Positions 33,324 to 51,372 of a DNA stretch of 64,000 nt are shown piece by piece. The position numbers and the translations under genes are program-made. The stretch comes from an uncultured bacterium (GTDB lineage: Bacteria; Patescibacteriota; JACMRA01). Position 1 is the stretch's first letter. Each line of letters begins with the position of its first letter. The stretch covers positions 864,001-928,000 of the forward strand of contig OY969926.1 of assembly GCA_963704645.1 (NCBI GenBank), written 5' to 3'. The notes under the pieces are model-generated. The model saw only the letters and a program-made list of their open reading frames with translations. It was not told the DNA's origin and searched no databases.

Positions 33324-33343
33324 TTAGATCTTTAAGCACTACA

Positions 33344-33956: not shown

Positions 33957-34021
33957 ATAAATTTTGACCTTAAGGCTTTTTTATGAATTAATTAATTGTG
34001 TTTTAGATGTAGGTAAATTAA

Positions 34022-34585: not shown

Positions 34586-34614
34586 TTAAGCATATTTAAT
34601 AAATTTATATTTTT

Positions 34615-34893
34615 ATGCAAAAAACTACAATTAAAGCTGCGGGTAGGTGGCAAGTTACCCTTCCAAAAAATACTGCTTTAGATAACCGTATTAATAGCCT
34701 TTTAAAAAGATATGAAGGCATGAACTTAACCGAAATTACTAAACTTGCCCTTATTGAACTAGATAAAAAAGAAGCTGAAGAAAATTATCCAATAGATAAA
34801 GTTTTAGATGACTATTACGCTGGAAAACTTAAAACAACCAAAGTTAATTCTAGCAAAGAGCTTGAAGCATTATTAGCTAAAATGGCTGAATAA
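34615..34893 (+). CDS. Putative antitoxin
   Basis: Small ORF 2 nt upstream of a RelE-like toxin; WQVTLP N-terminus and SSKELEALL tail. Confidence 0.65.
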   Translation: MQKTTIKAAGRWQVTLPKNTALDNRINSLLKRYEGMNLTEITKLALIELDKKEAEENYPIDKVLDDYYAGKLKTTKVNSSKELEALLAKMAE

Positions 34894-34895
34894 TT

Positions 34896-35138
34896 ATGTA
34901 TAGTATAGAATTTTTAAATGATTTCTGGAAAGTATACAATAAACTTGCAAAAGGAAACTCTGTTCTGCAAAAAAAGTTTTTTAATTGTTTAGATAAAATG
35001 GCAGTCGATCCGTTTTATAGTTCTTTAAAAACCCATAAAGTAGATAGTAAAAAATACAAAAATGTATATTCAAGCTGGGTAAGTAGCTATGTTAGAATAA
35101 AATATGGTTTATGGGAAGAAGATTGGCTGAAGTGTTAA
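34896..35138 (+). CDS. RelE/YafQ-like toxin, probably C-terminally truncated
   Basis: F.K.Y.KL, DPFYSSLKTHKV and YSSWV..VRI motifs; lacks the usual final strand/IG.H end. Confidence 0.65.
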   Translation: MYSIEFLNDFWKVYNKLAKGNSVLQKKFFNCLDKMAVDPFYSSLKTHKVDSKKYKNVYSSWVSSYVRIKYGLWEEDWLKC

Positions 35139-35141
35139 AAT

Positions 35142-35558
35142 CTACCGCACCAAACCTGGTTTCTTTTCAGCTTCCAATAAAACTTTTTTCAACACATCCA
35201 AATTTACACCTTCCAAGCTTTTAATATTTATACAACTTTTGCCAACCTTCACCTTTCCAAGTTCTTTAGCGTGCATTTCGGCAGTATATTCACCATTATT
35301 TAAAGCACAAACATATAAGCTAATATAGTTTTTCTGATTGGCAAGTGAAATTACAGGCCAAGAAAGAACTTGTTTTTTGGAATTAGTATAAGGAAAAGAC
35401 CCATAACCAATCATATTAATGGCAAAATGTGGCTGTAGAGTAGGTACAGTTTGAATTATGAAATTGTGCAAAAATTCAAAATCCGCCTTGCGTTCAGTAG
35501 GCACACCGGCGATGTAATCTGGGATGTTTGTGGCTTTGGAGGGTTTGAACATGTTCAT
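35142..35558 (-). CDS. DUF1801 (YdhG-like) protein
   Basis: MIGYG, LANQKNYISLY and LGKVKVGKSCI motifs. Confidence 0.85.
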   Translation of the reverse strand: MNMFKPSKATNIPDYIAGVPTERKADFEFLHNFIIQTVPTLQPHFAINMIGYGSFPYTNSKKQVLSWPVISLANQKNYISLYVCALNNGEYTAEMHAKELGKVKVGKSCINIKSLEGVNLDVLKKVLLEAEKKPGLVR

Positions 35559-35570
35559 AGCGAAGAAGGG

Positions 35571-36119
35571 TTACTCAAAATTTAAACAAAACAATTCGAG
35601 TAAAATTTTGAATTCTGTGTTTGCAAATAAATGCTTATTTGAATTTATCAACTTCTTTGAAAGTTTTTCATCATAGAAATCTTCGAGAGGAGTGTTATTA
35701 AGTAATTTTTTGAATTTTTCTTTCAGCCTACCACAGTTTTTTCTTTCAAATCCAGATGTATCACCGAAAAATAAGGCCAAATTGATAGCCTCAATGCAAG
35801 GTTCATTTATTACCAGGATTAATTCATGATTTAGACCTTTTTTCTTTTCATTTACAATTTTATCGAAGTCTTCTCTTCTAGCTATCTTGTCACCATCAAG
35901 AACACAATATCGAACATCAAAATCGCCATCTTCACTCAGACAATTATTTAAAATAACTTCAGGCGTAGAACCATTCCCCTGTCTTATGCTAAAACTAGTT
36001 TGATAAACTCTCTGGATCGTTTTTAACAAAACACTCTCACATTTACCCTCAGTAAAAATAAGTATTCGTGGTTTAAATTCAACTCTATGTTCGATTCTAT
36101 ATTCGTGGCTTGGCTCCAT
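35571..36119 (-). CDS. RloB-like (TOPRIM-fold, AbiLii-type) protein
   Basis: ILIFTEGKCE, CVLDGD and INEPCIE motifs; overlaps the end of the AAA ATPase; likely start ATG 36119. Confidence 0.8.
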   Translation of the reverse strand: MEPSHEYRIEHRVEFKPRILIFTEGKCESVLLKTIQRVYQTSFSIRQGNGSTPEVILNNCLSEDGDFDVRYCVLDGDKIARREDFDKIVNEKKKGLNHELILVINEPCIEAINLALFFGDTSGFERKNCGRLKEKFKKLLNNTPLEDFYDEKLSKKLINSNKHLFANTEFKILLELFCLNFE

Positions 36120-37278
36120 ATGCACCTGCAATATATTTATTATAAAAATTATCATCAGTACGAACCCCCTCAATATCGTTTAGTTTAAAAACTTCTGTTG
36201 ATCCATTAATAATGTTTTTCTCAGCAAAAAATATTTGATTTTTATCTAACTTCTTCATGATTGCTAATGAATGTGAACTAAAAATTAATTGACTTTCTAC
36301 TTCAGAATCAATAAACATATCTATAATTTCTCTTAGAATATCAGGATGTAAAAAAGCCTCTAATTCGTCCATAATTAACGGTGATTTGCTTTTTATTGAA
36401 GCCAATATATACCTCATGACTAAAAGAAGTCTTTTTGTTCCGTTGGAAGAGTAGTTAATATCATTACTGTATATTTTGTCACCAAAATTATGATTTTCAA
36501 CAACATCCTGTATAGTAACACTGTTATCCTGTTCTTCAGTTTTAAATTTAATACTATCAAATCCTAAATCAAACCTTCTCAGCATTTTCTCAACATTTAC
36601 TTTCTCATCAGGAAAAATATGAAAAGAAGCTAAGCTTTCCATAATTTCTAAAGGATTATTACCGCCATAGCCTGTTTCTTGGATATTGGTATTTAAATTA
36701 TTCCAATAATTAAAGATCTCAATTGATTTAGAGTCATTAAACTGCCTACCAATAGCAAGCAAAGAGACGTTTGTTCGATCTAATACTTCAGGCTTGTACG
36801 AAGTAAAACTAAGGTTTGAATCTTTATAAATATATTTTCCTTTATTATAATCCAAGTTCCTACTAAAAATAATTTTTGTTGTCCTTCTTTCATTTACTAG
36901 ACTTTTAGATAATAATTCTTCGCTTATAATTTTTTTCCGTGTAAGCTCAACTTTGTAAGTATACAGCGTTTCCTTAATTGCAAAAGCTACTTCAAAAATT
37001 GTATTTTCATTATTTTCAAAAAAATTTTTAAACGGTAGTAAAGCATCAGGTTCAATATCAAAAGATTTACATATTAGCCATTTAATAAATGCAAAAGACT
37101 TGAGGAAGTTAGTCTTCCCAGATGCATTTGAACCCACAAACATATTTACTTTGGAAATTTTCTCCTGTGCAGACTCAAGATAACTGTTGTTGTAAGGCTC
37201 AGAACGGTCAGATATAAAGCTAACTGCCTGCTCATCTCTTATTGAATAAAAATTTTTAACTTTTAAATAATGAATCAT
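36097..37278 (-). CDS. AAA_21/AbiEii-like ABC ATPase (RloA/AbiLi-type)
   Basis: VKNFYSI, GSNASGKTN, SNGTKR, MDELEAFLHP, QLIFSSH and YIAGAYGAKP motifs. Confidence 0.9.
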   Translation of the reverse strand: MIHYLKVKNFYSIRDEQAVSFISDRSEPYNNSYLESAQEKISKVNMFVGSNASGKTNFLKSFAFIKWLICKSFDIEPDALLPFKNFFENNENTIFEVAFAIKETLYTYKVELTRKKIISEELLSKSLVNERRTTKIIFSRNLDYNKGKYIYKDSNLSFTSYKPEVLDRTNVSLLAIGRQFNDSKSIEIFNYWNNLNTNIQETGYGGNNPLEIMESLASFHIFPDEKVNVEKMLRRFDLGFDSIKFKTEEQDNSVTIQDVVENHNFGDKIYSNDINYSSNGTKRLLLVMRYILASIKSKSPLIMDELEAFLHPDILREIIDMFIDSEVESQLIFSSHSLAIMKKLDKNQIFFAEKNIINGSTEVFKLNDIEGVRTDDNFYNKYIAGAYGAKPRI

Positions 37279-37414
37279 AAATTAATAATAACATTTTTTT
37301 AAAATAAGGTCAATATTTTACAAATGATTGGTTTATTTTACTTTTAAATCTAAAAGAATTATGATTTAAGTTTAATCAACCCTCTTGCATTGCACTTCAT
37401 TTAATGATCATATT

Positions 37415-38095
37415 TTATGACATCATCCCTACATTTTTCATACTAGTATAACCATTTATAGAAACCACAATATGATCTGCAACTGTAATTCCTAAAATCC
37501 TCCCAGCTTCAACAAGCCTTCTTGTGGTTAAAATATCATCATTTGAAGGTGTATGATCCCCTGATGGGTGGTTGTGTGCAACTATTATATGCGAAGAATT
37601 ATACAGAATTGCCTTTTGGAAAACCTCTCTGGGGTGAACTAAACTGGCATTTAGTGTACCAACTGATATTTCATCAACAATAAGTTTATTTTTGGTGTCC
37701 AAATACAGAATTACAAAATTTTCTTTTTTTGAGTTACCAATCTTTGCTTTTAAATAGGCATATACTGCTTCTGGTGAATCTAATAGTGTACTATCTTTGA
37801 TTGCTTCTTTGTTGTATCTAATTAATAATTCATGAAAAAGAATAATAGCAAAAGCATTTGAAGGGCCTATTCCATCCACTTGTTGTAGCTCTTCATTTGA
37901 GGCGCTCAAAACATTTGTTAAGCCTTCAAACTTTGAAATTGCAGCTTTTGCAATTTGTTTGCAATCTTTTCTTGGTGTACCTAAAATTAAAAGTAGTTCA
38001 ACAATTTCATAATCTAAAAAACCTTCTAATCCAGATTGTAAAAGTCTGTCTTTAAGTCTTTGTCTATGTCCTATATTTTTGTTTAATTCATCCAT
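37415..38095 (-). CDS. radC: RadC family protein (HhH + JAB domain)
   Basis: GHRQRLK, GIGPS, VHPREVF, HNHPSG and DHI motifs. Confidence 0.95.
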   Translation of the reverse strand: MDELNKNIGHRQRLKDRLLQSGLEGFLDYEIVELLLILGTPRKDCKQIAKAAISKFEGLTNVLSASNEELQQVDGIGPSNAFAIILFHELLIRYNKEAIKDSTLLDSPEAVYAYLKAKIGNSKKENFVILYLDTKNKLIVDEISVGTLNASLVHPREVFQKAILYNSSHIIVAHNHPSGDHTPSNDDILTTRRLVEAGRILGITVADHIVVSINGYTSMKNVGMMS

Positions 38096-38096
38096 A

Positions 38097-40007
38097 TTAG
38101 TTAATTATGGAAATACCATCTGGTATATCTGAATAATTGCTAACAACTTTTGAGTTATTTTTCAAGTTATTTTTGAAATACTCCCTTGTTTCCTCATCAG
38201 TACAATAAATATAGCAACCCTTCATTCCTCTTGTCATTAAAGTTCTATAGGTATTTTTAATAATCATATCTGCCGTTTCTTTGGCTATTTCTGGGTTTTC
38301 TTTAAGCATCTTTTTATAACCAAAAATAGATTTATCCGTGCTTGCTCGTTTTGAAGCATCAGTAAGTATTTTACCATTTCTAACCATTAAATCTGGCCCA
38401 ATGATAACACCTGCATAATCTAGCTCTAAACCTTGGCAAGTGTGAATGCAACCAACTTCATTAACTGAATTTTTATGTACAATCCAAGCTTGTCCGTGCT
38501 CATTTAAATTCCATTTTGCAGAATAATCATCTATAATAATATCTTTTAATTCTGGTTGGGTTTTGCTAACCCATTTCCAACAATAGCCAGCCAAAATTCT
38601 AGATTTATTATTAAATTCATTTTTTTGAATAATTTTTTCATGAACTGATGAAGGGTTATCAATTACTTGGAAATCATAGTTTACTTCTTCAAGTGTATTA
38701 TTTGCTGTTGGCCTTATTTGTAAAACGTTATCAATCCAAGCTAAATAACCATCTGAACCATTACACCTAAACTGTGAAGCTAACTCAAGGGTATGTACTT
38801 TTGCACCTAAAATTTTTGCCCAACTTACAATTTCAGACTTTTGACCAATATCATTTAGCGTAACCCTTTGATCTTCATCTACGAAGAAAATGCTTAATTT
38901 AGCCGATTTAATAAGCTCCTTCACTTGATTCTCTCCAAGATGATTAAAAAGGCCAGATTTGGCATTTAGCCTGTGTGCTTCATCAACAATTAATGAATCA
39001 AAAGTATTTGGCTCTAAACTATGAAATGATCCAGAAGAACTAAATAAATTCTGAATTCTTGTTTTGGTAAATTTACCAGTTAATTTTACTTGATAAACCT
39101 CCCTAGGTGCTGAATTTTTTGTAACATACTGAGTCGCATCTCCTCTTTTTGTTAATTCTGTAAGTAAATTTATTGCTACAACAGATTTACCTGTTCCGGG
39201 CCCACCTTCAACAATTAAAACATTTTTATTATCTTCAGTTGATTCTTTTGCTAGTTTTAAAGCAGTTTCATAAACCAGTTTTTGCTCATCAATAAGAGTA
39301 AATTCAGCATTGCCATCTAACATTGAAGCAAGGTTGTCTGCCAAGGCTTTAGATGGTCGAATTTTGCCATGTTCTATTAAATAAATTGCATCGCCATTAT
39401 CTCCTTTTTTTACAAACTTCTTTATAAAATCTCTAAGCTTGATTGCGTCAGGCTTTAAAAAAATTGGGGCTCTATCCAGGTACTCTTTATAAAACTTGTT
39501 TGTTATTACTTCATCTGGTTCATAATTATGTAAATATGCACAAGGTGAAAGTAAAATTTCTTCTGTTTGTACATTACTATTATAATCTTCAATAAGACTT
39601 GCGTAAGACCAAACCTGATAAGATGGGTGGCAAACTTCACGAACATTTCCACCAACAAAGGTTTTAACCATGCCGTCTAAATCTGTTATATCCGCTGTCT
39701 CCCACTGTTTTAATTCTACTAATACAACTGACTTTTGCTTATTCTCATTTGTACCTGTTATTATAAAGTCTATCCTTTTGGAGTTTTGAGGAACCTTATA
39801 TTCAATTGCAATCCCTGCATTATCAGGAATTTGAGAATCGGAAATAATCTTGTCCATGTACATCATTGAGTTTTTCCACGAAGCAATCTCTGCCCTTCCA
39901 GTTGCATAACCCATTTCACGAACAAAAGAAGTTAAAATTTCCGTCTCAATTCTATTATTCAGCACATCTTCCATGAATAACTTTTTTGTAGATGAATAAA
40001 TAATCAT
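38097..40007 (-). CDS. DUF2075 (Schlafen group 3-like) helicase with N-terminal PD-(D/E)xK-like domain
   Basis: IEY..RIDF..VELKQW, GGPGTGKS, DEAHR, QFRC, QGLELDY and LMTRG motifs. Confidence 0.9.
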   Translation of the reverse strand: MIIYSSTKKLFMEDVLNNRIETEILTSFVREMGYATGRAEIASWKNSMMYMDKIISDSQIPDNAGIAIEYKVPQNSKRIDFIITGTNENKQKSVVLVELKQWETADITDLDGMVKTFVGGNVREVCHPSYQVWSYASLIEDYNSNVQTEEILLSPCAYLHNYEPDEVITNKFYKEYLDRAPIFLKPDAIKLRDFIKKFVKKGDNGDAIYLIEHGKIRPSKALADNLASMLDGNAEFTLIDEQKLVYETALKLAKESTEDNKNVLIVEGGPGTGKSVVAINLLTELTKRGDATQYVTKNSAPREVYQVKLTGKFTKTRIQNLFSSSGSFHSLEPNTFDSLIVDEAHRLNAKSGLFNHLGENQVKELIKSAKLSIFFVDEDQRVTLNDIGQKSEIVSWAKILGAKVHTLELASQFRCNGSDGYLAWIDNVLQIRPTANNTLEEVNYDFQVIDNPSSVHEKIIQKNEFNNKSRILAGYCWKWVSKTQPELKDIIIDDYSAKWNLNEHGQAWIVHKNSVNEVGCIHTCQGLELDYAGVIIGPDLMVRNGKILTDASKRASTDKSIFGYKKMLKENPEIAKETADMIIKNTYRTLMTRGMKGCYIYCTDEETREYFKNNLKNNSKVVSNYSDIPDGISIIN

Positions 40008-40009
40008 AT

Positions 40010-40390
40010 TTAATTTAGTTCTGTATATTTTTTTGAAGAACCTACAGTCTTTTCAACTGGATATTTAACTGAATTTTTTTCAATTTTATTTTTAGCAATA
40101 TCAAGTAAATTAACATTTAGAACATCCGCTAAATTGATTAAATAAATCAAAATATCTGCCATCTCTTCCTTTATTCCTGTTATTTTGTCAGTTTTTATTA
40201 AATTTTCAACGTCTTGAGATTTCACCCATTGAAAACACTCCATCAATTCTGCAGCTTCAATTGATATTGAAATTGCTAAATCTTTTGGATTATGAAATTG
40301 TTTCCAATCTCGATCATCACGAAATTTGATGATTTTTTTAACTAATTCGTCATAAGAACTAGCATTAGTATTATTTGAATTTATAGACAT
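40010..40390 (-). CDS. MazG-like nucleotide pyrophosphohydrolase
   Basis: RDWKQFHNPKDLA, EAAELME, EEMAD and KYPV motifs. Confidence 0.93.
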   Translation of the reverse strand: MSINSNNTNASSYDELVKKIIKFRDDRDWKQFHNPKDLAISISIEAAELMECFQWVKSQDVENLIKTDKITGIKEEMADILIYLINLADVLNVNLLDIAKNKIEKNSVKYPVEKTVGSSKKYTELN

Positions 40391-40396
40391 TTAGAG

Positions 40397-40489
40397 CAAC
40401 TAAATTAATACCCTAAAATTACACTTAAACCCTTCCTTTTGGCAAATATGGGTAGTACAAGCTTTGGTCTGAAAATAAACGGTTAAAAG
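40397..40489. repeat. ~93-bp direct repeat (copy 1) containing a minus-strand TTGCCA promoter
   Basis: Second copy at 42126-42218; the first ~59 bp differ by one base. Confidence 0.92.
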
Positions 40490-40513
40490 ATCTAAACTCT
40501 ATAATACTTAATT

Positions 40514-40954
40514 CTAGCTTTCTTTGCTTAAGGCTTTAAATAATTTAAACAGCCACTCATCGTCAGTATCAGTTTCAGTTATAATTCTTAAAATGAACTC
40601 TTGTAAAAGCTCTTTGTCTATTTTATTTTCAGCCACTTCTACTACAATATTTTCCATTTCAATAAGAAACTTTTCTGCTAGGTTTTTACTAAAATTTAAA
40701 CTAATAAAGTAGGTTCCAAGGGCTAAAGCTGTTCTTTTGTTGCCATCATTAAAACAGTGAAATTTAACCAGTGCAAAAAATAAATGGGTAATTTTATCTA
40801 AAAAATTGGGATAATATATATCGTTTTGGATATGCGTTAAAATGCTTTCTATTTGCCCCAAATCTTTCACACCTTTTAGTCCAGACTCTTTTTCTAAAAT
40901 TCTTGTATGAACAAAAATGGCTTTTTCCAAACTAATATAAACAATTCTTTCCAT
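40514..40954 (-). CDS. Fic/Doc (death-on-curing) family toxin
   Basis: HCFNDGNKRTA motif. Confidence 0.92.
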   Translation of the reverse strand: MERIVYISLEKAIFVHTRILEKESGLKGVKDLGQIESILTHIQNDIYYPNFLDKITHLFFALVKFHCFNDGNKRTALALGTYFISLNFSKNLAEKFLIEMENIVVEVAENKIDKELLQEFILRIITETDTDDEWLFKLFKALSKES

Positions 40955-40956
40955 AT

Positions 40957-42069
40957 TTATCTATCTTTTAGTCTTTTAAAAATATCTTCGTGGTTATCTA
41001 TTAGCTTAATAAATTCTTCAGTTTTTTGCTCTATTTGTTCACTTTCTTCAGACAAAAACTTTTGATATTCTTCTTCAGACAGTGATGACAAATATGGCTC
41101 TAGGGCTTCGTGTAAAATATCTCTAAAAGCTTTATCACGGCTGGCCATTAACATTCTTGCGGTGTCTTTAATTGGTTTTAAAAAGGGAGAATTGAAACAA
41201 AATTTAAAAACTTCCTCGGCCTCGTCTTGTAATAAAGGTCTTTTCTGGTCTTCATATTTTTGCTTTAAAGCTTCAGTTATGCCATTTTCATAACCGGAAA
41301 CTACATCTAATATCTCTCTGTAAAGTGTGTGCCTAAGGTTATCTCTTGCCCCTAATTTAAGCAGTTGTCTATATTCTCTGGCGTTTTCACCGAATAAGTC
41401 TTTATATATTAAATCTGTAAAATATGGATACTTAAAATTTCCCAGCTCTGGTGAAAGATAGTCTTTTAAACCATCTGTAAAAGCTTTTCTATAGTCTTTG
41501 TTTTGCAAATAGCTTTGTGTAAAAGTTTCGTCTCGCTGATTAATATATTTGGTTTTACCACCTGTTTTAGATCTCATCACATCTACTACAATATCTAATA
41601 TCTTAGATCTTAATTCTTGTGCTACTAAACTATTTTTAAGAAGCATTCCAACGTTTAGAAAAGCTCTAAAATCAAAAACACCCAAGACAGTAGTTTTGGT
41701 ACCTGCAGGTTTGCGGTTCACATCTGGGTTTGTGTCTATTTCATCAGCTTTTGACGTAAAATTAGAATTATCACTTTTGGTACCGACATTGTTGTCGCTC
41801 ACATACTTATTTTTGGCTATTTTAAGGCGTTTTCCCGTAAGAATTTCGTAGCCATTTTTTCGTAGTTCTTGCTCGTTTTCTTCTATCATCCTTTCCAAAG
41901 TTCTCTCATCAACTTGATAAAAATCTGCTACATCTTGTTTTAGAATATAAATTTTACCTTCCATTTCAAAATAAGGAAAATTTTTCACTTCTTCCTGAAT
42001 TTTAGACAAAGCAAAGGGGTTATTTAGTATATTTTGCCGGTCAATGTTAGATTGTGTTATATCTGGCAT
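40957..42069 (-). CDS. DNA-binding protein of the type usually paired with Doc
   Basis: IDRQNILNN, VADFYQVDERT, FLNVGMLL and GGKTKYINQRD motifs; 2 nt upstream of doc. Confidence 0.75.
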   Translation of the reverse strand: MPDITQSNIDRQNILNNPFALSKIQEEVKNFPYFEMEGKIYILKQDVADFYQVDERTLERMIEENEQELRKNGYEILTGKRLKIAKNKYVSDNNVGTKSDNSNFTSKADEIDTNPDVNRKPAGTKTTVLGVFDFRAFLNVGMLLKNSLVAQELRSKILDIVVDVMRSKTGGKTKYINQRDETFTQSYLQNKDYRKAFTDGLKDYLSPELGNFKYPYFTDLIYKDLFGENAREYRQLLKLGARDNLRHTLYREILDVVSGYENGITEALKQKYEDQKRPLLQDEAEEVFKFCFNSPFLKPIKDTARMLMASRDKAFRDILHEALEPYLSSLSEEEYQKFLSEESEQIEQKTEEFIKLIDNHEDIFKRLKDR

Positions 42070-42125
42070 AGCTTGAAGGTTTTATTTTGTTTATAGCTTA
42101 ATCTTTCATTATATATAGAAATGTA

Positions 42126-42218
42126 CAACTAAATTAATACCCTAAAATTACACTTAAACCCTACCTTTTGGCAAATATGGGTAGCCAAAGCTTCAGTCTG
42201 AAAATATATGCTTAAAAA
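42126..42218. repeat. ~93-bp direct repeat (copy 2)
   Basis: Matches 40397-40489. Confidence 0.92.
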
Positions 42219-42317
42219 GGTTAGAGTAGGGCAGTGTAACTTTCATTGCCAAACCCTAAAAACTGTGCTTTTCTATAAGTATTGTTTCAATTTTGAACAA
42301 TTTAAGGAGTAAAAGTA

Positions 42318-42569
42318 ATGGATCCCAGATTTGAAAAGTATAGAAATGAAACTTATTTTCTAGCTGTAGTTTGCGGCGTAACAATAACCTTAACAAAAAA
42401 TGAGGTAAGACCCATTGCCAAGAAAATTACAGGACTTTCTGACAAGCCCTTCTTTCCAGAGACCATTGTGGATATCGCTCCAACTGACGTTGCTTACGGT
42501 GGTTTAATAGTTTTAGTTTCAACGCTAGTCTTTGCTTTCGGTGTGCTAACTTTTGGAAAGAGGGGGTGA
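42318..42569 (+). CDS. Cassette 1: small 2-TM protein, paralog of 44906..45142
   Basis: RPI.K.ITGLSDK...V.IAPTD.AY.G shared; promoter at 42246, AAGGAG SD, terminator at 42595-42623. Confidence 0.8.
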   Translation: MDPRFEKYRNETYFLAVVCGVTITLTKNEVRPIAKKITGLSDKPFFPETIVDIAPTDVAYGGLIVLVSTLVFAFGVLTFGKRG

Positions 42570-42594
42570 GTTTTTTTGTTCAGTACAAATATTT

Positions 42595-42623
42595 AAATAG
42601 CTTGAGTGACACAGGCTATTTTT
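42595..42623 (+). terminator. Conserved cassette terminator AATAGCTTG-N5-7-CAGGCTATTTTT (also at 43970-43995 and 44763-44790)
   Basis: Three copies downstream of three non-homologous ORFs. Confidence 0.85.
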
Positions 42624-42656
42624 CTTTGCTCTAAAATCTCTCATTTCTTGGGCTAA

Positions 42657-43626
42657 TTAAGTAAAAAACCTATCAAAGGCCAAATCAATTTGCTTTCTAA
42701 ACTCTGGAAATTCGCTTTTCGACATTATTTGTATGGCAAACAACAGCTTAATTTCGTTTTCAAAGTTTTCATCCCAAAGTTCTGGATATTGGTTTATAAA
42801 CACATCAAAAACGTGTGGCATTTGTGTGGTATAAAACTTTTTAAGCTGTGCTGGAACAACGGCCGTGGGTAGGAAAGTAAATAAAAATACTGCAAGTAAT
42901 TCTCTAAATCTTGGGGCAAAGTGTGAATAATCAAAATCTATAAAAATTTAAGTTTAAGTTTTCATCAATCAAAATATTTTCTAGGTGAACATCGCAGTGA
43001 ATTAAAAATATTTCTTGGCTAATTAATTTTTCAGAGGTATTTTTTCTAATTTCTTGGAAGGTTTGTCTTATATTTTCAGGCAAATGTTTGCCGTCTTTAG
43101 CTATTGTTCTATCAAATTCATCTAAAATTCGCTTGGTGGAATATTCAAAGTTAAATATTGGCTGGTGAAAATCTTTTAATTTATCAATAACTTTTACAAT
43201 TGTTTTAATTTGGTCTTCGGAATTTAATTTGTAGAAAAAATCAACTAGCGGTTTAGACTTAGTGTAATACTCACTCACTACCACAGCAGTTCCTAATGCT
43301 TCATCATATTCAGTAAAAAACAGAATTCCTAAACTTGTTAACGAAATTTTAGATTCAGCTAAATCTGTATAATTTTGAATTAGTCTTTGCTTATAAACCC
43401 CCTCATTTCTTAGCTGGTTTTTATATTTAGGAACAAAAATTTTCACAATTATTTCTTGCCCAATAAGAACGGTTAGGGTGGTTTGTCCACCTTCCATAAT
43501 TTTAATTGGCTCATTAACTAATTTAGGGTAATTTTGTGAAATCCAATGCGGTAATACTTCCAGTTTCTCTAAAGAAATTTCCGATAAAGATAGTAAAAAC
43601 TGAGGATTAACAATATTTTTTAGCAT
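42657..43626 (-). pseudogene. Aminoglycoside/choline phosphotransferase (APH-like kinase), frameshifted
   Basis: HCDVHLENIL (Brenner motif) is in the first frame. IDFD and ~90 further codons are in another frame after a T5 run (42942-42946), ending at TAA 42657-42659. Confidence 0.8.
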
Positions 43627-43756
43627 ATTTTCTTATCATTTAAAAGCGGTATAAAGCCAAGCTTGTCAAAACGTTGTGGTAAAAGAAATTGGTGGGTTAC
43701 AATTGCCAAATGCCAAAAACTGTGCTTTTATGTAAGTAGAACTTTTGGATTAAATA

Positions 43757-43960
43757 ATGTTGTATAAAAACATTTACCGCTATGGTTTGGGTTTGACATC
43801 GATCATCGTAGTTTTACTGTTAGCTATTCTTTTCATCCCAGAGCTTGGAACTAAGACAAGTAAAGATCCTAAGAATGATAACATAATTTACATACTTATT
43901 TGGACTGGAAGTGCATCAGCCTTAGCCACATTTTGGGCAAGGGGGAAACTAGAAGGATGA
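43757..43960 (+). CDS. Cassette 2: small 2-TM protein
   Basis: Promoter TTGCCA at 43703; terminator at 43970-43995. Confidence 0.7.
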   Translation: MLYKNIYRYGLGLTSIIVVLLLAILFIPELGTKTSKDPKNDNIIYILIWTGSASALATFWARGKLEG

Positions 43961-44076
43961 CTTATAAAGAATAGCTTGAACCACAGGCTATTTTTCTATG
44001 GGAGTCTTAAATTGCCAAATGCCAAAAAGCATGCCTTAATTAGTTGTTATTCTATTTTAGAACAAACTGAGGAAAA

Positions 44077-44328
44077 ATGTCTCAAAAGAATACGGATTAT
44101 TTATTGCCAGCTATATATCTTCTAGTTGTGTGGATGTTTGTAAACTCCACTTGGAGGTTTTTTGGAGATCTAATTTCAAACATGTTTGGGTTATCCAACC
44201 AACCCAATTTTTACGAAGTAGGTAATATTTTTAGAATAATATTGCCATCGCAGGCTGCATTACCATATGTTTTTATGGTTGGAATGTTGTCCGGGTGGGT
44301 ATATTATAAATATATAGATAGAATTTAA
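44077..44328 (+). CDS. Cassette 3: small 2-TM protein
   Basis: Promoter TTGCCA at 44012, GAGG SD, terminator TTGCCCTG-CAAGC-CAGGGTGA. Confidence 0.7.
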   Translation: MSQKNTDYLLPAIYLLVVWMFVNSTWRFFGDLISNMFGLSNQPNFYEVGNIFRIILPSQAALPYVFMVGMLSGWVYYKYIDRI

Positions 44329-44437
44329 TTTTAATTGCCCTGCAAGCCAGGGTGATATTTTTTTAGAAAAGGTTTGCTAAAATTATTAAACTGTGCCTAA
44401 ATAAGAAAGTTGCTGAAATTATAACAATGGAGATAAA

Positions 44438-44755
44438 ATGATTCTAATTCAATTTGTGGTAGGCATTCTGATATCAATATTTGCAGAATATCTTCTGAAG
44501 AATATTATAACTTCAACTAGCGAAACAACCTTTGTTTTATTGTTTGCCATTTTTTTTCTAGTAGGTTTGGCAGTTACTTTTATTTGTGTACCACGTAAAA
44601 TGCTGTTCAATTTTTTCGCATCAGCATTTCTAGGGTATGTTTTTAGTATCAGTTATTTTGCACTGATAGGCTCAGTGCTTACGCTAGATAAGACATTTCT
44701 TTTACTTTTTTACTTCGTAATTTTATATATATACGTGCTGGGCGTGACAGCCTAA
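44438..44755 (+). CDS. Cassette 4: small 4-TM protein
   Basis: Promoter TTGCTA at 44374, GGAG SD, terminator at 44763-44790. Confidence 0.7.
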   Translation: MILIQFVVGILISIFAEYLLKNIITSTSETTFVLLFAIFFLVGLAVTFICVPRKMLFNFFASAFLGYVFSISYFALIGSVLTLDKTFLLLFYFVILYIYVLGVTA

Positions 44756-44905
44756 TTTTAATAATAGCTTGAGTTACACAGGCTATTTTTCTTATTCTAA
44801 ATTTTTTGCACATTATTTTTTCTTGTTTTTAAAAATATTTGCCAAACATTAAAATATTTAGCTTCTTATTTACATAGTTCAATTTGAAACAATTTAGAGG
44901 AAATA

Positions 44906-45142
44906 ATGAATTTGAGACTAAGGAACTATGAAAAAAAAGTAAATTTAACAGCTCTGTTTTTCGGAGTCTTCGCCACTCTTACCAGGGAAGCAGCAAGACC
45001 AATTGTTAAAAGTATAACAGGTTTGTCTGATAAAATTTATGAAGGTTTGGTTGTTGAAATTGCGCCAACTGATATTGCGTATATTGGTGTAATTGCGCTT
45101 ATTGTTTGCAGTGCTTTATTTCTGCTCAACCAGCGCAAGTAG
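44906..45142 (+). CDS. Cassette 5: small 2-TM protein, paralog of 42318..42569
   Basis: Shared protein motif; promoter TTGCCA at 44839; GAGG SD. Confidence 0.8.
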   Translation: MNLRLRNYEKKVNLTALFFGVFATLTREAARPIVKSITGLSDKIYEGLVVEIAPTDIAYIGVIALIVCSALFLLNQRK

Positions 45143-45215
45143 TGAAGCTAAACTAATTCAATTTGTGTTGTAAATAATATTCTGCACCCTAAATAATAGG
45201 GTGTTTTTCTTTGCC

Positions 45216-46184
45216 CTAAAACCTTTTTGCCCAACCCTGCCTGTTTATTTTTATAAATCTTAAAATGTTAATAATTATAAGTAATTCTTTCACAATGTCT
45301 AAAATTTGCTTGTAGTCTGTGGCTTTTAAATAAATTTTAGGGTCGAACAAATTAACTGGTTCTGGTGAAATTTTGTTTGTGCTTACTGGTTTCCAGCTAA
45401 AAAATATTTTTCGATCATTCACTATTAAGGTAATTTTCTGGTTGAATCTTTGGTGCAAATCTAGCAAATAATCCATAACCGCAGGGTTTAAAATGAACCT
45501 GGCAAATACTTCATCGTTACTGTAAAAATCGTATATTTCAGCTAATCTTGGGCTTTCTAAGTTAATTTTTAGCAATTCAGGAAACTTTCTAAACTTGGTT
45601 TTTTCAACCACATGCAAAATTCCACCATAAGTAGAATAATTTAAGTCCATAAAACCCAATAAACCTTTAAATGTAGTTGTTTTTGTTAAATTAAAATTGG
45701 CATGTGTCGTATTTTCGCTTATAAAAATTTCAGACATTTCAAAAGGCATGCCATCAATATTTGTAATTACCAAGTCTTCCCCAGAAATAATTGTGTCTGG
45801 TGTATAGTTTAAATCTAAAATTCTAGAAGACAATATTGCATCTATTTCCAAGTGTCTTTCCGGGTAATAAGACATATTGGGGAAAATTGCCTGAAATAAT
45901 GGTTGAATAATTTCGTTTTTGTATCTTTTTTTGTATGGTTTTTGCCCAAGAAATACCATAGCCAAACTTCCAAAGATAAAATATGAACAAGCAAAAGCCA
46001 AATCAAAGTCACGCTCGAACGGAGCCACAAAAAGTAAAAGCAAAGTGAAAATTAAGGCTATTCCAGCTGCAATTCTAGTTGTACTCCAAATAATCTTTCT
46101 AAGCTTTTCAAGCTCAACTAATTTGTGTTCTAAGTTTTGTGCAACAAAGTCCTCCACCTGCTTAAAATATTCGTCCGAGTTCAT
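45216..46184 (-). CDS. DUF3137-like membrane-anchored protein
   Basis: Two N-terminal TMs; GEDL, TTFKGL, LESP and ARFILNPAVM motifs. Confidence 0.8.
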   Translation of the reverse strand: MNSDEYFKQVEDFVAQNLEHKLVELEKLRKIIWSTTRIAAGIALIFTLLLLFVAPFERDFDLAFACSYFIFGSLAMVFLGQKPYKKRYKNEIIQPLFQAIFPNMSYYPERHLEIDAILSSRILDLNYTPDTIISGEDLVITNIDGMPFEMSEIFISENTTHANFNLTKTTTFKGLLGFMDLNYSTYGGILHVVEKTKFRKFPELLKINLESPRLAEIYDFYSNDEVFARFILNPAVMDYLLDLHQRFNQKITLIVNDRKIFFSWKPVSTNKISPEPVNLFDPKIYLKATDYKQILDIVKELLIIINILRFIKINRQGWAKRF

Positions 46185-46349: not shown

Positions 46350-46800
46350 TTAGTTTGAATAACCAATAGCTTCCGATAGATCAGCACCATTGAGATTTAC
46401 CCGATCAAGTATTGCACCAGTTAGATTAGCATCAGATAGATCAGCATCTGTTAAATCTGTGTTTTGCAAACATGCCCAACTTAATGTTGAATTAGTCATG
46501 ATTGCTCTACACAGAATAGCCCCTGATAGATCCGCATTATTCAGAACAAGAAAGGATTCTGAAGTAATATCAGAAAAGTTTGCTCCTGTTAAATTTCCAT
46601 ATTGCAGGTTTGTTCTAGTCAGAATAGCTCTAGAAAGATCAGCTCTATTCAAATTAGCTCCGCCTGATATGTCTGCCCTCGAGAGATCTGCTTCCGAAAG
46701 ATTCGCGCCTTCCAAATTTGCTTTAAACAACTTTGCATTTGTCAGATTCGTGCGTTGAAGATTCGCACCAGAAAAATTAACACCATTCAGAAAAGCTTCA
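46350..46800 (-). pseudogene. Pentapeptide repeat protein, 5'-truncated
   Basis: A(N/D)LxX repeats continue upstream of the track start to ~46800, where a 30-bp repeat and an in-frame stop occur without a start codon. Confidence 0.75.
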
Positions 46801-46935: not shown

Positions 46936-47745
46936 ATGATAGAAGACTCGTATAACCAAAGAAGTGAATTTGAGCTGAGAAGCACTATAGAATACTTTGA
47001 AAACAGAAAAGAGCAAATAACCATGCAAGAACTTTCTGATTTTTTTGGAGTAATTTTAGTCCATTCGCTTCCCGATGACACCGAAGATCAGGTGCTAAAT
47101 GATAAAATTAAAGACTATACTAGCTATCAATTGTTAGAAATCGCTTTAGATAAATGTTTAAATAATCCAATTGAAAATTTGGCTTTCTGCTCTGTGCAAA
47201 GAGGTGATGATTACAACCGATGGTTTGGCAGATTTTTTGGTGTAGTTACCTTGAGCGGAAAAATTGTACAGACTTCTGTAAGCGACGCAAATTCTTGGCA
47301 TAAAGAGCATGGGCATTATGAAGAGACATCAACCAATAAAGACATTTTAGCCGCCATTAGACCAGGTAAAAGTTCCAAAAAAAATGAAATAAATATTAGA
47401 ACTGAGCCAAATCTTCTTCTACCTTTTTTAGACTTAGACCATGTTTTAGGAAGCCTAAAGTGGGGTGCTCAAACAAAAGAACGCCTTACAAATTTATCTG
47501 TAGTTGATCAATTCTTTAGGTTTAAAAAACTTATGGATGAACGGAATCTTCCTTATATTGGCTTATACAAAGGGAGTGTGGTTGAATTTGTACCTGAAGT
47601 AATGGCTGAAGAAATTAGTGGTTTTGAAGAAATAACTGAAGAAAATTATCAAAAATGGAGAAGCAATATGGCTATGCTAAAGGTTAAGATGAATTATTTA
47701 AAACCATTAACTTTTGACCAGCTCACTAACTTTACAAAGCTTTAG
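46936..47745 (+). CDS. Hypothetical protein
   Basis: 269-aa ORF with ATG start. Confidence 0.65.
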   Translation: MIEDSYNQRSEFELRSTIEYFENRKEQITMQELSDFFGVILVHSLPDDTEDQVLNDKIKDYTSYQLLEIALDKCLNNPIENLAFCSVQRGDDYNRWFGRFFGVVTLSGKIVQTSVSDANSWHKEHGHYEETSTNKDILAAIRPGKSSKKNEINIRTEPNLLLPFLDLDHVLGSLKWGAQTKERLTNLSVVDQFFRFKKLMDERNLPYIGLYKGSVVEFVPEVMAEEISGFEEITEENYQKWRSNMAMLKVKMNYLKPLTFDQLTNFTKL

Positions 47746-47771: not shown

Positions 47772-48935
47772 CTAAAACAAATGCTTAGGGTTTAGCCTAA
47801 CTTGCAGGCGTTTTTGTAAAGCTAAAGTTCCTATAGTTTGCCTTAGTGTACTAAATTTAGTGTATCCTTTAGGGTATCTTATCAATATATGGAAGGAATA
47901 CATGTTTTTTCGTCTTAAAAAACGTGCAGGGTAGGGTGAACCTACTTCAATTTCTGGCATTTCTGCTTTAACTGTGAAAATATAGTTTTTCAAATCTTGC
48001 AGAACGTTTAAGGCCACACTTTTGTCTTTTTCTTGGGAAGTAATTAGTAGAAGATTATAAAATGGAGGAAACTTAAATTTTTCACGCAAACGTTTTTCTT
48101 CTTCCAAAAAAGTATTGTACCAATTTAAAATGGTTTGATATTGCGGGTGAATTCTGTTCAACCTTAAAACTTCTTTAAAAAAACTATTCTCTGGGTTGGT
48201 TGTATCAAAATATATATGACAAGCTGGGTTTACCTGGTTTAAAACCTCGGCCAACTGCTTGTGCACGTCTTCTTGAACCAGATAATCTGGGCTGGCTAAC
48301 AAATTATCGGCTTGAACAAAAACAATTTTATTGAAAATAGAATAATTAATTTGTGGGTCATAAACCCTTACACTTACAGCATTTTGGCCATCTACAAGGG
48401 CTTCTAAAGTATCACTTAAAATGTTAGATTTTCTTTTATTTTCGCTAATTTGTATTATAAAACTGTCTTGTTTCTGTAAAAATTCTATATTTTCCTCATC
48501 AATTACACCATTAGGCATTGCTGAAAGTAGTGTTTCAAAATTTGCCCCCTCATCTGATTTTTCATCTTTTGGAAGATTATCGATCGTATTCTTGTCTTTT
48601 CTTTTGGAAACTTTTTCTGTTTTTAACCAATCTGGAGTAGGGGACTTTCCTGCAAAATTATATGTTTTAGTTTCGCTTAAATTGTCTAAAACGTTAATAA
48701 GCTCATCAATTCCGGCAAAAATAGAAGAAAAGTTTTGGCCATGACAACTTGGACACTTGTTTGGATAGTTATAAAAAGTTTGGCATTGGTGACAAACCAA
48801 CTCTAATTTATAAGGCGAAGTTCTATAAGTTACTAAATTAGCATCACAATTTTGACATTGAAAATTATGCCCACAATCTTGGCAACGTGTTAACTGAAAA
48901 AGCCCTCTTCGGGGGTGAATGTATAAGGTTGGCAT
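47772..48935 (-). CDS. priA: PriA C-terminal half (Cys-rich Zn region, degenerate helicase lobe 2, CTD)
   Basis: HPRRG, CQDC..CQNC..CHQC..CPSC, FPPF and PYPA motifs. Confidence 0.85.
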   Translation of the reverse strand: MPTLYIHPRRGLFQLTRCQDCGHNFQCQNCDANLVTYRTSPYKLELVCHQCQTFYNYPNKCPSCHGQNFSSIFAGIDELINVLDNLSETKTYNFAGKSPTPDWLKTEKVSKRKDKNTIDNLPKDEKSDEGANFETLLSAMPNGVIDEENIEFLQKQDSFIIQISENKRKSNILSDTLEALVDGQNAVSVRVYDPQINYSIFNKIVFVQADNLLASPDYLVQEDVHKQLAEVLNQVNPACHIYFDTTNPENSFFKEVLRLNRIHPQYQTILNWYNTFLEEEKRLREKFKFPPFYNLLLITSQEKDKSVALNVLQDLKNYIFTVKAEMPEIEVGSPYPARFLRRKNMYSFHILIRYPKGYTKFSTLRQTIGTLALQKRLQVRLNPKHLF

Positions 48936-49148: not shown

Positions 49149-49544
49149 TTGGAAAAAATTGAAGTTGGAGCTGATGGTATTATTGCATATTTGTTGAAGA
49201 GCAGGAAAGCAGGGAAATATATATTTTTTAACAATACTCCAGTGTCGGTATTTATTTCTAGGTGGGAAGACAACGAAGGCCAAGTTTTAAAAGATATTGA
49301 AATTTTACCTCGTGAATTTGGCTTAGAACCAATTGATTTCACTTCAGAAAATGAAATTTCTTCTCTATTTGATAACTCGACATTAAATATTTATATACTA
49401 CAACTATTTGTAGTGGTCGATGATCCATCTTGTAATAAACTAGTAAAAAAGTTTTACCGTTCTTGTCAGTTTGGTGACGTTCTAGTAAGTTATTTCTCAC
49501 CTATAGACTTCTACGAACATTTTCAATTTAATGATGATCTGTAA
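49149..49544 (+). CDS. ORFan cassette protein between the priA halves
   Basis: TTGACT promoter, GAGG SD, terminator CTCTCAA...TTGAGAG-T tract. Confidence 0.6.
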   Translation: MEKIEVGADGIIAYLLKSRKAGKYIFFNNTPVSVFISRWEDNEGQVLKDIEILPREFGLEPIDFTSENEISSLFDNSTLNIYILQLFVVVDDPSCNKLVKKFYRSCQFGDVLVSYFSPIDFYEHFQFNDDL

Positions 49545-49692: not shown

Positions 49693-50745
49693 TTAATGGT
49701 TTGTTGTAGAAGACTTTGCCAAATCTGAAAACCTAACTGAGGGGAAATTACTTTGATAATATAAATCCGAACCAAATTGCGAAGCTAAAATATAAGAAGT
49801 TTCACGTACATCAAAATATAATCCACCTTGTTCTTGAATATGCATTGAATTACTTTCGTCTATAACAAAAATTGCTGAAATTTGGTTATAAGGTAAAAAT
49901 AATCCAGCTCTGGTTGTAAAATATACATTTTTCTTTATATTTTTTGAATCTGGAAGCAAAAGGCTTTTTATTGTAGCTTTAGAGGCTTTATCTTTCCCAG
50001 AGGTAAAACTATATAGATGAACATCTGAAAACTCCTTTAAATTGATTTGTGAAAGCCATTTTTTTAAAAGTTTAATTTCTGGAAAGATAATTAGGGTATT
50101 TTTATACTGTACGTTTCGTATAAGGTACATTATACGTAGTATACTTTCTATATCCCCGTTTTTATCTTTATCTGTAATATTTTCATTATTAAAGTGTAAA
50201 TATTCAGTTTTACCAATTTTAATGGAATCAGGTTTTTGTGAAACTCCAAAATTATTATTTGGGCTGGAATTTTCATTTTTTGCTAAAATTTTATTATTGT
50301 AATTTTCTGTGATAATTTTCCAATCGGCTTTTATTAACAAATTAAAACTTTCAAGGCCGGCAGATAAAACTCTGTTCATGCTACTGAAATTGTTAAAAGC
50401 AACACTTTGCCAAAAATTCATTAAGTTGGATGAAAAAATGTATGGTAAAATATTTTCAATTGGTTTAACTTCGTATTTAGACTTCGCTATTTCCTCTGAA
50501 GGCAACGTTTGGGCAGATTCAACTTCTTTAGGGAAATTACCAATCAACTCTGAAGTTTCATCGTTATCTACAATTTTAGTCGTTTCCTTGCTCTCCACCC
50601 TACTCTGTTTGAAAATAACCCCTTTTTCTAAAGTATTTCTTATAGAGACTTCAACTAGCTGGCCAATTGCTAAATCTTCCTGTGAAGAATAGGTTAAAAA
50701 GCTGATAGGTAAAAGCTTTTCGGTTAAAACAGCATAATGATACAT
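49693..50745 (-). CDS. priA: PriA N-terminal half (3'-DNA-binding domain plus degenerate helicase lobe 1)
   Basis: LTY..L.IGQLVEV..R....GVI, LIIFPE, TTRAGLFLP, VIDE, FDVRE and SNFPS motifs; no intact Walker A. Confidence 0.8.
   Translation of the reverse strand: MYHYAVLTEKLLPISFLTYSSQEDLAIGQLVEVSIRNTLEKGVIFKQSRVESKETTKIVDNDETSELIGNFPKEVESAQTLPSEEIAKSKYEVKPIENILPYIFSSNLMNFWQSVAFNNFSSMNRVLSAGLESFNLLIKADWKIITENYNNKILAKNENSSPNNNFGVSQKPDSIKIGKTEYLHFNNENITDKDKNGDIESILRIMYLIRNVQYKNTLIIFPEIKLLKKWLSQINLKEFSDVHLYSFTSGKDKASKATIKSLLLPDSKNIKKNVYFTTRAGLFLPYNQISAIFVIDESNSMHIQEQGGLYFDVRETSYILASQFGSDLYYQSNFPSVRFSDLAKSSTTNH
50113..50140. other. Putative dif (Xer recombination) site GTTTCGTATAA-GGTACA-TTATACGTAGT
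   Basis: 11-6-11 architecture with inverted CGTATAA/TTATACG arms; KOPS-like octamers converge on it. Confidence 0.75.
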
Positions 50746-50796: not shown

Positions 50797-51372
50797 TTAT
50801 TTTGCATTTTTCAGTATTAAATCAGCAAATTTGGGCGTAACGTCCGTAAGTTCAAAACTGTTTTCTGATATTTTAACCGAAGACACAAGTAAATCTTGTA
50901 TAGACTTTTTTAACTTATTACTCAAAAACTTTATTCCTAGTTGTTTTCCATCTTTATAATTAGTTATGAAGTATTCAGAGATGAAACTTTCAGTTATTAT
51001 TTGCAAATTATCCTTTGAAAGCTTAGAATCTATCCACTCTCCATAATAATCAAGTACAATAACTGCAATTCTGTTGGCAATTTCTTTCTCTGTTTCAGTA
51101 TTATCAAGTTTTTTATCTTTTAGGTTTGTAATTTCTTCCAAAATATAATCCTCTTCGAAATCTTCTAAGCTAAAGCCAATTTTAGCAGCTGTACTATAAG
51201 CATATTTTAAAATATCTTCATCATTACTAAAATTATATTCAACTGCCTCTGGAATATATTCAACTAAATCGCCTTCCTCGCCATCAACCGCCACAAAACC
51301 TGGAATTTGTTCTATATCTTCATCGTTATGATTCGTTTCAGCCTGATCAACTATTTTTTTTAGAGATGCCAC
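50797..51372 (-). CDS. Acidic hypothetical protein
   Basis: Overlaps the end of the upstream giant ORF, consistent with an operon. Confidence 0.7.
   Translation of the reverse strand: MASLKKIVDQAETNHNDEDIEQIPGFVAVDGEEGDLVEYIPEAVEYNFSNDEDILKYAYSTAAKIGFSLEDFEEDYILEEITNLKDKKLDNTETEKEIANRIAVIVLDYYGEWIDSKLSKDNLQIITESFISEYFITNYKDGKQLGIKFLSNKLKKSIQDLLVSSVKISENSFELTDVTPKFADLILKNAK

Follow-up and report, generated by a model that had tools for sequence, protein, structure and literature searches.

The locus described here raises the question of how five small genes, most of them without recognisable kinship, came to stand in a row behind related promoters and, in part, before the same terminator. It lies in the chromosome of an uncultured bacterium of the phylum Patescibacteriota, whose genome is a single contig of 1,272,640 bp (33% G+C; the genomes of sampled relatives measure 0.7-1.6 Mb). 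The window, as we call the whole stretch of 64,000 nucleotides that was analysed, comprises bases 864001-928000 of that contig, and all positions below are counted from its first base. Between 42.2 and 45.2 kb, inside a variable, defence-rich island, it carries five open reading frames (ORFs) of 67-105 amino acids (aa) on one strand, each with a -35-like block and an intrinsic terminator. We find that the promoter and terminator modules are confined to this locus and that the parts of one unit have conflicting nearest relatives. We favour, at about even chances, an origin by local duplication with later exchange among the promoter and terminator repeats, the ORFs having diverged or been partly replaced; a dedicated gene-capture machine is not supported.

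Five units and their shared signals

An earlier reading of this DNA, made from the letters alone (the sequence-only reading), had recognised five ORFs here, each preceded by a related promoter block. We confirmed the ORF starts and the blocks, which have the form TTGC[C/T]AAA, begin at 42246, 43703, 44012, 44374 and 44839, and lie 54-72 nt upstream of the ORFs. The features of the five cassettes (c1 to c5, with ORFs o1 to o5) are given below. SD denotes a Shine-Dalgarno sequence, P a profile of the five promoter-leader segments and T a profile of the three terminators of type T-a.

42246-42317, plus strand: promoter and leader of cassette 1, with TTGCCAAA (42246-42253), an A-rich spacer ending in TGTGC (42264-42268), a weak -10, AACAAT and the SD AAGGAG (P profile, E 2.8e-14)
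42318-42569, plus strand: o1, 83 aa, small membrane protein paralogous to o5 (BLASTP), with a strong hydrophobic segment at residues 56-82
42595-42626, plus strand: terminator T-a, copy 1, with a 10-bp stem, the shared T-G wobble, the loop AGTGACA and a U run (-9.6 kcal/mol, z -2.18; T profile, E 2e-13)
43703-43756, plus strand: promoter and short leader of cassette 2, no clear SD (P profile, E 4.1e-10)
43757-43960, plus strand: o2, 67 aa, with a possible TatA-like N-terminal helix (sequence comparison with a family relative)
43970-43995, plus strand: terminator T-a, copy 2, loop AACCA (-12.0 kcal/mol, z -3.6)
44012-44076, plus strand: promoter and leader of cassette 3, the first 18 nt the same as in the c2 block, SD GAGGA (P profile, E 3.4e-12)
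44077-44328, plus strand: o3, 83 aa, an orphan; its co-linear similarity to the o1/o5 family is marginal (hhalign, shuffle test)
44334-44366, plus strand: terminator T-b, found only in cassette 3 (-10.9 kcal/mol, z -2.05; no downstream similarity to other cassettes)
44374-44437, plus strand: promoter and leader of cassette 4, with TTGCTAAA, then CTGTGC and the SD GGAG (P profile, E 1.4e-8)
44438-44755, plus strand: o4, 105 aa, a very hydrophobic orphan with about four predicted helices (grand average of hydropathy 1.69)
44763-44790, plus strand: terminator T-a, copy 3, which with its tail is identical to copy 1 at 30 of 31 nt (-8.7 kcal/mol, z -3.07)
44839-44905, plus strand: promoter and leader of cassette 5, TTGCCAAA kept and the TGTGC element not, SD GAGGA (P profile, E 1.4e-8)
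44906-45142, plus strand: o5, 78 aa, paralog of o1 (BLASTP)
45184-45214, plus strand: terminator T-c, a unique hairpin (-11.4 kcal/mol, z -3.52)

The 3' end of every unit is predicted to fold into a hairpin of 8-12 pairs with a 5-7-nt loop and a U run after it (energies from -8.7 to -12.0 kcal/mol, z-scores between -2.05 and -3.6), and transcription would start and stop at the signals listed. An SD can be read from the sequence in four of the five cassettes, c2 being the exception, and the motif AACAA stands just upstream of the SD in four of the five leaders. These elements had been described before together with leader hairpins; the hairpins did not hold up, since all five folds gave z from -0.02 to +1.45, no better than shuffled sequences. 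The description of the ORFs as small transmembrane proteins fits four of them, in which a 19-residue window reaches a hydropathy of at least 1.6, and not o3, which stays under that threshold. An Rfam search of the window at gathering thresholds returned only a tRNA, and in E-value mode the 40.3-45.4 kb interval gave one chance-level match.

When the whole genome was scanned with models of these motifs, only five P and three T-a copies were found, all of them local. The strict promoter pattern TTGCYAAA-N5-9-AAAMTGTGC matches c1, c2 and c4 (shuffled sequences give a mean of 0.01 matches) and nothing else in the 1.27-Mb genome; where other cassettes have CTGTGC, c3 has GCATGC and c5 has TATTTAGC. 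The terminator pattern AATAGCTTG-N5-7-CAGGCTATTTTT occurs after o1, o2 and o4, with no further occurrence in the genome and none in 100 shuffles. The profiles give the same result: P has its five local matches at E of 1.4e-8 or below, the next best genome-wide being 0.017, and T has three at E of 1.3e-8 or below, the next best being 0.05. By these patterns and profiles the modules are shown to be confined to the locus. All three T-a copies carry the T-G wobble, and those of c1 and c4 differ at one of 31 nt, loop included. Since the profiles single out the local copies and the T-a copies share wobble and loop, the copies clearly appear to share common descent, beyond what functional constraint would impose.

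Outside this genome, a scan of genome_contigs with C allowed at the wobble position matched at least 120 unrelated terminators from many phyla, and the exact terminator was met once in metagenome_contigs, by chance, within a large ORF on a GC-rich contig. The collection viral_contigs gave no match for the o1/o5 protein family, the terminator or the promoter, and phage and plasmid collections gave no DNA match to the array. No look-alike of phage, plasmid or viral kind was found for the cassettes in the collections searched.

To compare the cassettes part by part, local alignments of their upstream, ORF and downstream segments were scored against 300 shuffles. Among upstream pairs, c1-c2 scored highest (z 14.0), followed by c2-c3 (10.5), c1-c5 (7.3) and c1-c3 (6.2), the pairs with c4 being weak (z at most 2.7). 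Only c1-c5 was similar among the ORFs (z 5.8). Downstream, c1-c4 led (17.2), then c2-c4 (12.9), c1-c2 (11.1) and c1-c5 (7.4, in the tail only), with none for c3. The nearest relative of cassette 1 is thus cassette 2 by its promoter, cassette 4 by its terminator and cassette 5 by its ORF. This conflict points to recombination or gene conversion among the units, and it bears out the proposal that regulatory frames and cargo have separate histories. The underlying pattern had also been read correctly: three ORFs without detectable homology (o1, o2, o4) share T-a, and the hairpins of the homologous pair o1 and o5 differ, T-a following o1. The c1-c2 upstream likeness covers about 37 nt in local alignment and 45 of 53 positions in a gapped global one.

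Cassettes 1 and 5 have promoter, leader, ORF and post-terminator tail in common and wholly different hairpins, and look like whole-unit duplicates in which the hairpin alone was replaced. By hand count of the alignment, the 21-nt tails after their terminators are identical at 19 positions. The c5 tail reaches into the convergent DUF3137 gene, covering its final codons together with the stop, a hint that c5 may be the older copy. The promoter-leader segments of the pair are identical at 53 of 65 positions (gapped), as against 37% at third codon positions of o1 and o5; flanks better kept than silent coding sites call for selection acting on them, for gene conversion, or for the two together.

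The core of the promoter block, a -35 TTGnCAAA, an A-rich spacer and TGTG just before the -10, is found before unrelated genes of this genome, and blocks similar to the cassette promoters stand upstream of other genes, among them one for a lipoprotein at a distance of 237 kb. Genome-wide, TTGACAAA is a very strong -35 with a close tie to gene starts: of its 138 copies, 83 have an ORF of 90 aa or more beginning within the next 120 nt. A weak -10 follows after 17 nt, and the commonest distance of the ATG from the -35 start is about 36-48 nt, by which many genes look leaderless. The variant TTGCCAAA is a minor form of this -35, with 41 copies outside crude calls of ORFs of at least 90 aa, seven of them within 40.4-46.3 kb. 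The 17-nt spacer ends in TGTGC in c1, c2 and c4, which we read as occupying the position of an extended -10. Sites resembling TTGnCAAA-N4-AAAAACTGTGC (at most three mismatches) number eight in seven of 25 other genomes of the family, against none for a reversed control; six of the eight are followed by an ORF of 35 aa or more, of diverse kinds, one being an IF-2-like gene. Because the core recurs before unrelated genes both here and in the family, it probably represents the lineage's ordinary promoter type. These features amount to a promoter description for an uncultured lineage with small genomes: TTGACAAA serves as the -35, the -10 is weak, a TGTG element may be present and many genes appear leaderless.

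The encoded proteins

Homology among all five ORFs was not found; one pair is clear and one further member marginal. BLASTP aligns o1 with o5 over 67 aa at 46% identity (E 6e-18), and the other nine ORF pairs have E of 0.3 or more. No further paralog of the five was found in the genome. With dN at 0.59, pS (the proportion of synonymous sites that differ) saturated at 0.70 and third-position identity at 37%, o1 and o5 are paralogs of long standing, kept under purifying selection. The hexamer score ranks the annotated frame best of six for all five ORFs; the scores of o3 and o4, o4 being the lowest of the five, fall below those of all 482 long-gene chunks.

None of the five matched a family in Pfam, PHROGs or PADLOC. 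A profile of o1 and o5 searched against 1.84 billion representatives gave three matches: o1, o5 and a 79-aa protein on a 1,219-bp contig (P0003). A metagenome scan with patterns of the o1/o5 family produced 206 pattern matches, none of which was confirmed, and a word-based search of 5.8 billion clusters with o1, o3 and o4 found only the queries themselves. Six-frame searches of the 25 family genomes found no match to o1 or o4; the one match to o3, inside an ORF of restriction-modification type, was spurious. The o1/o5 family profile gave one weak match, containing a stop codon, in 26 genomes of the class and none in 400 other genomes of the phylum. In the ESM Atlas the best scores for o1 and o4 were 0.84 and 0.87, under the 0.9 level. 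AlphaFold2, run on the three-sequence family alignment, predicted two helices with a mean predicted local distance difference test score of 59.5, too weak for a structure search.

There is a hint that o3 is an old paralog of o1 and o5. Profile comparison of the o1/o5/P0003 alignment with o3 gave a co-linear alignment of 40 columns (E 0.027, probability 1.9%) between proteins of the same length, with GLS-x-x-P-x-F-x-E at the matching position in both. In a shuffle test against the o1/o5 family, p was 0.046 for o3, 0.87 for o2 and 0.92 for o4.

A separate lead concerns o2. Its first 26 residues are identical at 17 positions to a frame in another genome of the family (G020; pairwise E 2e-10), the sole six-frame match of o2 in the family; that frame is a TatA (PF02416, E 8e-15) and adjoins TatC. 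The stretches concerned are 43757-43960 of the window and 1378-1581, minus strand, of locus L145. An alignment of ten family TatAs compared with the o2 helix by hhalign gave E 5e-4 at a probability of 31%. The Pfam models found neither TatA nor TatC in this genome and no TatA in the sole congeneric genome compared (G001). TatA is present in 12 of the 25 other family genomes, and o2 matched only one of the 12. Several results speak against the link. At E up to 10, o2 itself has no Pfam match, and a hidden Markov model of the family TatAs placed it second among the 8,521 frames of the genome, at E 0.96. It lacks the F-G hinge, reading ...LFIPELG, and the residues invariant in the ten family TatAs (F19, F20, G21, K24, P26) are incomplete in it. 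Seven of the matching residues precede the likelier ATG start of the G020 frame, and the likeness of cassette 2 DNA to five family tatA loci was not significant. The TatA profile found nothing in o1/o5, o3 or o4. We treat derivation of the o2 N-terminal helix from TatA as a lead whose chances fall somewhat short of even; o2 may be a relic of a lost Tat system.

Origin of the array

The reading we favour sees the array as a row, restricted to this locus, in which five small membrane proteins are each encoded by an autonomous transcription unit of a single gene. Such a unit would begin with a sigma-70-type promoter of the lineage (-35 TTGCCAAA, an A-rich 17-nt spacer ending in TGTG, a weak -10), pass through a leader of about 20-37 nt with an SD in four of five cases into a hydrophobic ORF of 67-105 aa, and close with an intrinsic terminator that would insulate it from the next. 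Repeated local duplication of one unit inside the variable, defence-rich island would have built the row. The short promoter and terminator repeats would later have exchanged sequence through homologous recombination or short-tract gene conversion, conversion being the homogenising process we infer, and the ORFs would meanwhile have diverged to or past the limit of detection or been partly replaced. If true, this is neat but ordinary: regulatory signals are used again and stay alike as the small membrane proteins behind them change past recognition. As to what the proteins do, an accessory envelope role, for instance in exclusion or immunity, that is tied to the defence genes nearby is a guess that we think wrong more probably than right.

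Several results weigh against this reading. The array is absent from G001 and no relative carries it, so that neither duplication nor conversion has been caught happening. Selection on the flanks could, without conversion, account for part of their conservation. Compared as a profile with o2 and o4, the o1/o5/P0003 alignment returned no match, and BLASTP and the shuffle test likewise left these two without similarity to o1/o5; the shuffle signal of o3 is not significant once corrected for three tests. If o2 does come from tatA, at least one ORF has a separate origin, which would fit replacement of cargo better than plain duplication.

Best placed among the alternatives, though unlikely in our view, is shuffling of the PeSL or moron kind, in which the modules would be portable homology anchors at which small genes from outside are inserted, swapped and lost by homologous recombination with no integrase. 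PeSL (promoter-early stem-loop) cassettes are known from T4-type phages (Arbiol et al. 2010, PMC2839356; Comeau et al. 2014, PMC4122927). Such a cassette runs from a stop codon through a stem-loop, a promoter of sigma-70 type and an SD to the start of a small ORFan, the whole lying in a hyperplastic region (PMC2839356), and the array has this layout: at the c2/c3, c3/c4 and c4/c5 joints a stem-loop, a sigma-70-like promoter and an SD precede small ORFans. Here, too, related modules flank unrelated ORFs in a variable region; at least three ORF types unrelated at a detectable level stand behind related modules, o2 may have a tatA origin of its own, and the site is a variable island. The differences are several. 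The array sits in a cellular chromosome with no phage genes around it, none of its five ORFs matches a PHROG or other phage protein family, and its DNA has no viral, phage or plasmid match. Five promoter and three T-a copies in one 3-kb locus compare with some 50 PeSLs across a phage genome (PMC2839356). Hairpin and promoter are separate pieces in the array, not one composite, with differing sequence in between at the c2/c3 and c4/c5 joints. Finally, no relative has an indel at the modules, the sole congeneric genome being without the array. Between closely related phages, PeSL units are inserted, deleted or replaced at breakpoints inside the modules, and mini-circles were detected by outward-facing polymerase chain reaction (PMC2839356). 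The reporter assays on PeSL function in supplementary fig. S1 of that paper do not bear on this locus.

The sequence-only reading had gone further and proposed a gene-cassette capture and shuffling system. That proposal was not borne out, given that the modules occur only at this locus, that their core is an ordinary promoter type and that no recombinase is adjacent. On the last point it had itself noted the lack of an adjacent integrase, rightly: a search of the whole genome with PF00589 found one tyrosine recombinase gene (19330-20475, with a SAM_1 N-domain), 22 kb from the array, between a polyprenyl synthetase and an M17 peptidase gene and among housekeeping genes. No other recombinase was found among the 36 distinct larger ORFs of the window scanned against Pfam, 14 of them within 32-47 kb.

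A wider version of the shuffling idea would have promoter and terminator segments serve as integrase-free homology anchors in small genomes of the Patescibacteria type, with membrane-protein genes captured, swapped and lost at the edges of defence islands; the array would then be one snapshot of a process that does on a chromosome what PeSL shuffling does in T4-type phages. We consider this improbable. It is compatible with the data because modules and ORFs have separate histories, one ORF is possibly tatA-derived and a second reused promoter segment lies nearby. Were the modules truly to mediate exchange of unrelated genes, the phage PeSL mechanism would be extended to cellular chromosomes, and the margins of defence islands could gain small genes without site-specific recombinases.

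Other known systems resemble the array in part. Like an integron or a CALIN (cluster of attC sites lacking an integron integrase), it is a one-strand row of small, mostly unrelated single-gene units; it differs in having no adjacent tyrosine recombinase of the IntI type, in giving each unit its own predicted promoter and a terminator before the next, where integron cassettes are promoterless and read from a common promoter, Pc, and in that its repeats look like plain terminators. Phage morons are autonomous promoter-gene-terminator units, and each ORF of the array likewise forms a self-contained predicted transcription unit, but there is no prophage context, the units are tandem and they share regulatory sequences. 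In tandem arrays of paralogs, flanks undergo concerted evolution by gene conversion. The o1/o5 paralogs, the flanks that outlast silent sites and the patches shared by non-adjacent units recall this situation, from which the array departs in that three of its five ORFs cannot be shown to be paralogous. Nothing pertinent on such arrays in Patescibacteria or on moron-type small membrane genes was found among the literature titles searched.

Putative mobile promoters (Nijveen, Matus-Garcia and van Passel 2012, PMC3575422) are defined by an identity of 80% or more across 50 nt or more in the region from -150 to -50, and reuse of promoters before unrelated genes is reported there as common, with more than 4,000 families in 1,362 genomes. 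As in those cases, similar upstream regions here precede non-paralogous genes in one genome without a known mobile element. The best cassette pair, c1-c2, lies within -72 to -1 and spans about 37 nt by local alignment, with 45 of 53 positions identical in the gapped global one, and the array reuses terminators as well. An 81-107-nt minus-strand repeat at 40379 and 42112, described below, does have the required length and identity.

We think it improbable, more so than shuffling, that o2, o3 and o4 are not functional genes but decaying frames, or frames open by chance, that AT-rich DNA offers between duplicated signals in this island, which also has a broken gene. The three are singletons in 15 billion proteins, o3 and o4 have the low coding potential reported above, o2 lacks an SD, and a frameshifted gene sits within the array. 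T-rich DNA, moreover, readily encodes hydrophobic peptides. What speaks against chance is that the annotated frame is the best of six for each, that each open frame spans the distance from promoter-SD block to terminator, and that two of the three (o3 and o4) have an SD at normal spacing.

Rather less probable still is that the ORFs encode small toxic membrane peptides of the type I toxin-antitoxin or holin kind. Such loci are often tandem repeats with conserved regulatory regions and fast-evolving peptides. The small, hydrophobic ORFs, their predicted separate transcription, strong terminators and defence-island setting would suit them, and the reverse-read -35 box (TTGGCAA) is itself -35-like, one minus-strand promoter-like site overlapping T-a copy 2. 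Type I toxins, however, are hydrophobic peptides usually under 60 aa with an overlapping antisense RNA; at 67-105 aa and up to about four helices the ORFs exceed that typical size, a consensus scan found no antisense promoter and terminator pair conserved across the units, and PADLOC and PHROG gave no matches.

The least probable explanation, that the shared signals reflect common regulation or functional convergence instead of common descent or exchange, can draw on the 41 copies of TTGCCAAA outside ORF calls, the promoter-like sites before diverse ORFs in seven of 25 family genomes, the similar block 237 kb off and the many-phyla matches of the hairpin pattern with C at the wobble. Against it stand a likeness that reaches into the leader and into positions not conserved in the genome's promoters, terminator copies that share loop sequence and T-G wobble, and module profiles that part the local copies from the rest by at least six orders of magnitude in E-value; the profiles largely refute it.

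The surrounding island

Two further features adjoin or interrupt the array.

42112-42218, minus strand: second reused regulatory segment, a promoter (TTGCCAAAAGG...) before the PDC-M59A/ORF6N gene, with a copy at 40379-40488
42657-43626, minus strand: broken phosphotransferase (APH-like) gene that parts cassette 1 from cassettes 2-5 (Pfam APH, E 3.8e-4, under the family cut-off)

The first of these lies about 30 nt away from the array. It carries a promoter on the minus strand, TTGCCAAAA, and is among the intergenic TTGCCAAA copies of the genome. Its copy precedes an unrelated minus-strand gene, MazG-like, and the two are 92.6% identical over 81 nt and 86% over 107 nt. By sequence, this repeat is a second case of promoter reuse at the locus.

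In the APH-like gene, an intact 318-aa homolog from another genome (G024) aligns in two frames, 43623-42913 and 42944-42663, pointing to at least one frameshift near 42913-42944; a homopolymer error of assembly is possible. Because the gene stops at TGA, an alternative code with TGA as a sense codon was considered and rejected: none of the 41 tRNAs has the anticodon UCA, and long ORFs are unbroken under code 11.

The interval between gmk (31765-32376) and the DUF3137 gene (45216-46184) measures about 12.8 kb here and about 1.7 kb in G001, where it holds three small genes. The variable hotspot proper extends over 32400-45215, between gmk and the DUF3137-priA genes. Besides the small-gene array and the frameshifted APH-like gene, it contains genes for NUDIX, DUF1801, AbiLi/AbiLii (35571-37278), RadC, MazG-like and Doc/Fic proteins, an AbiO/PDC-S41-like helicase of Schlafen type and PDC-M59A/ORF6N (40957-42069).

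Beyond the array, a pentapeptide-repeat gene (46350-46730, minus strand) and a 269-aa ORF without a family (46936-47745, plus strand) lie between DUF3137 and priA; both are missing at the G001 junction, where DUF3137 and priA abut. Farther on, a 1,369-aa ORF without a Pfam family occupies 50797-55456 on the minus strand, the matching place in G001 being taken by an unrelated 870-aa ORF. Before it stands a 191-aa ORF that shows a hint of MACPF_D3 below threshold (E 3.4e-5, 24.4 bits against a cut-off of 25). PriA itself is split into two minus-strand ORFs, the PriA_C part at 47772-48935 and the N-terminal 3'BD part at 49693-50745, about 750 bp apart with a plus-strand ORF without a family (49149-49544) between them. 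G001 has the same split, with about 1.8 kb between the halves (3874-5001 and 6844-7938).

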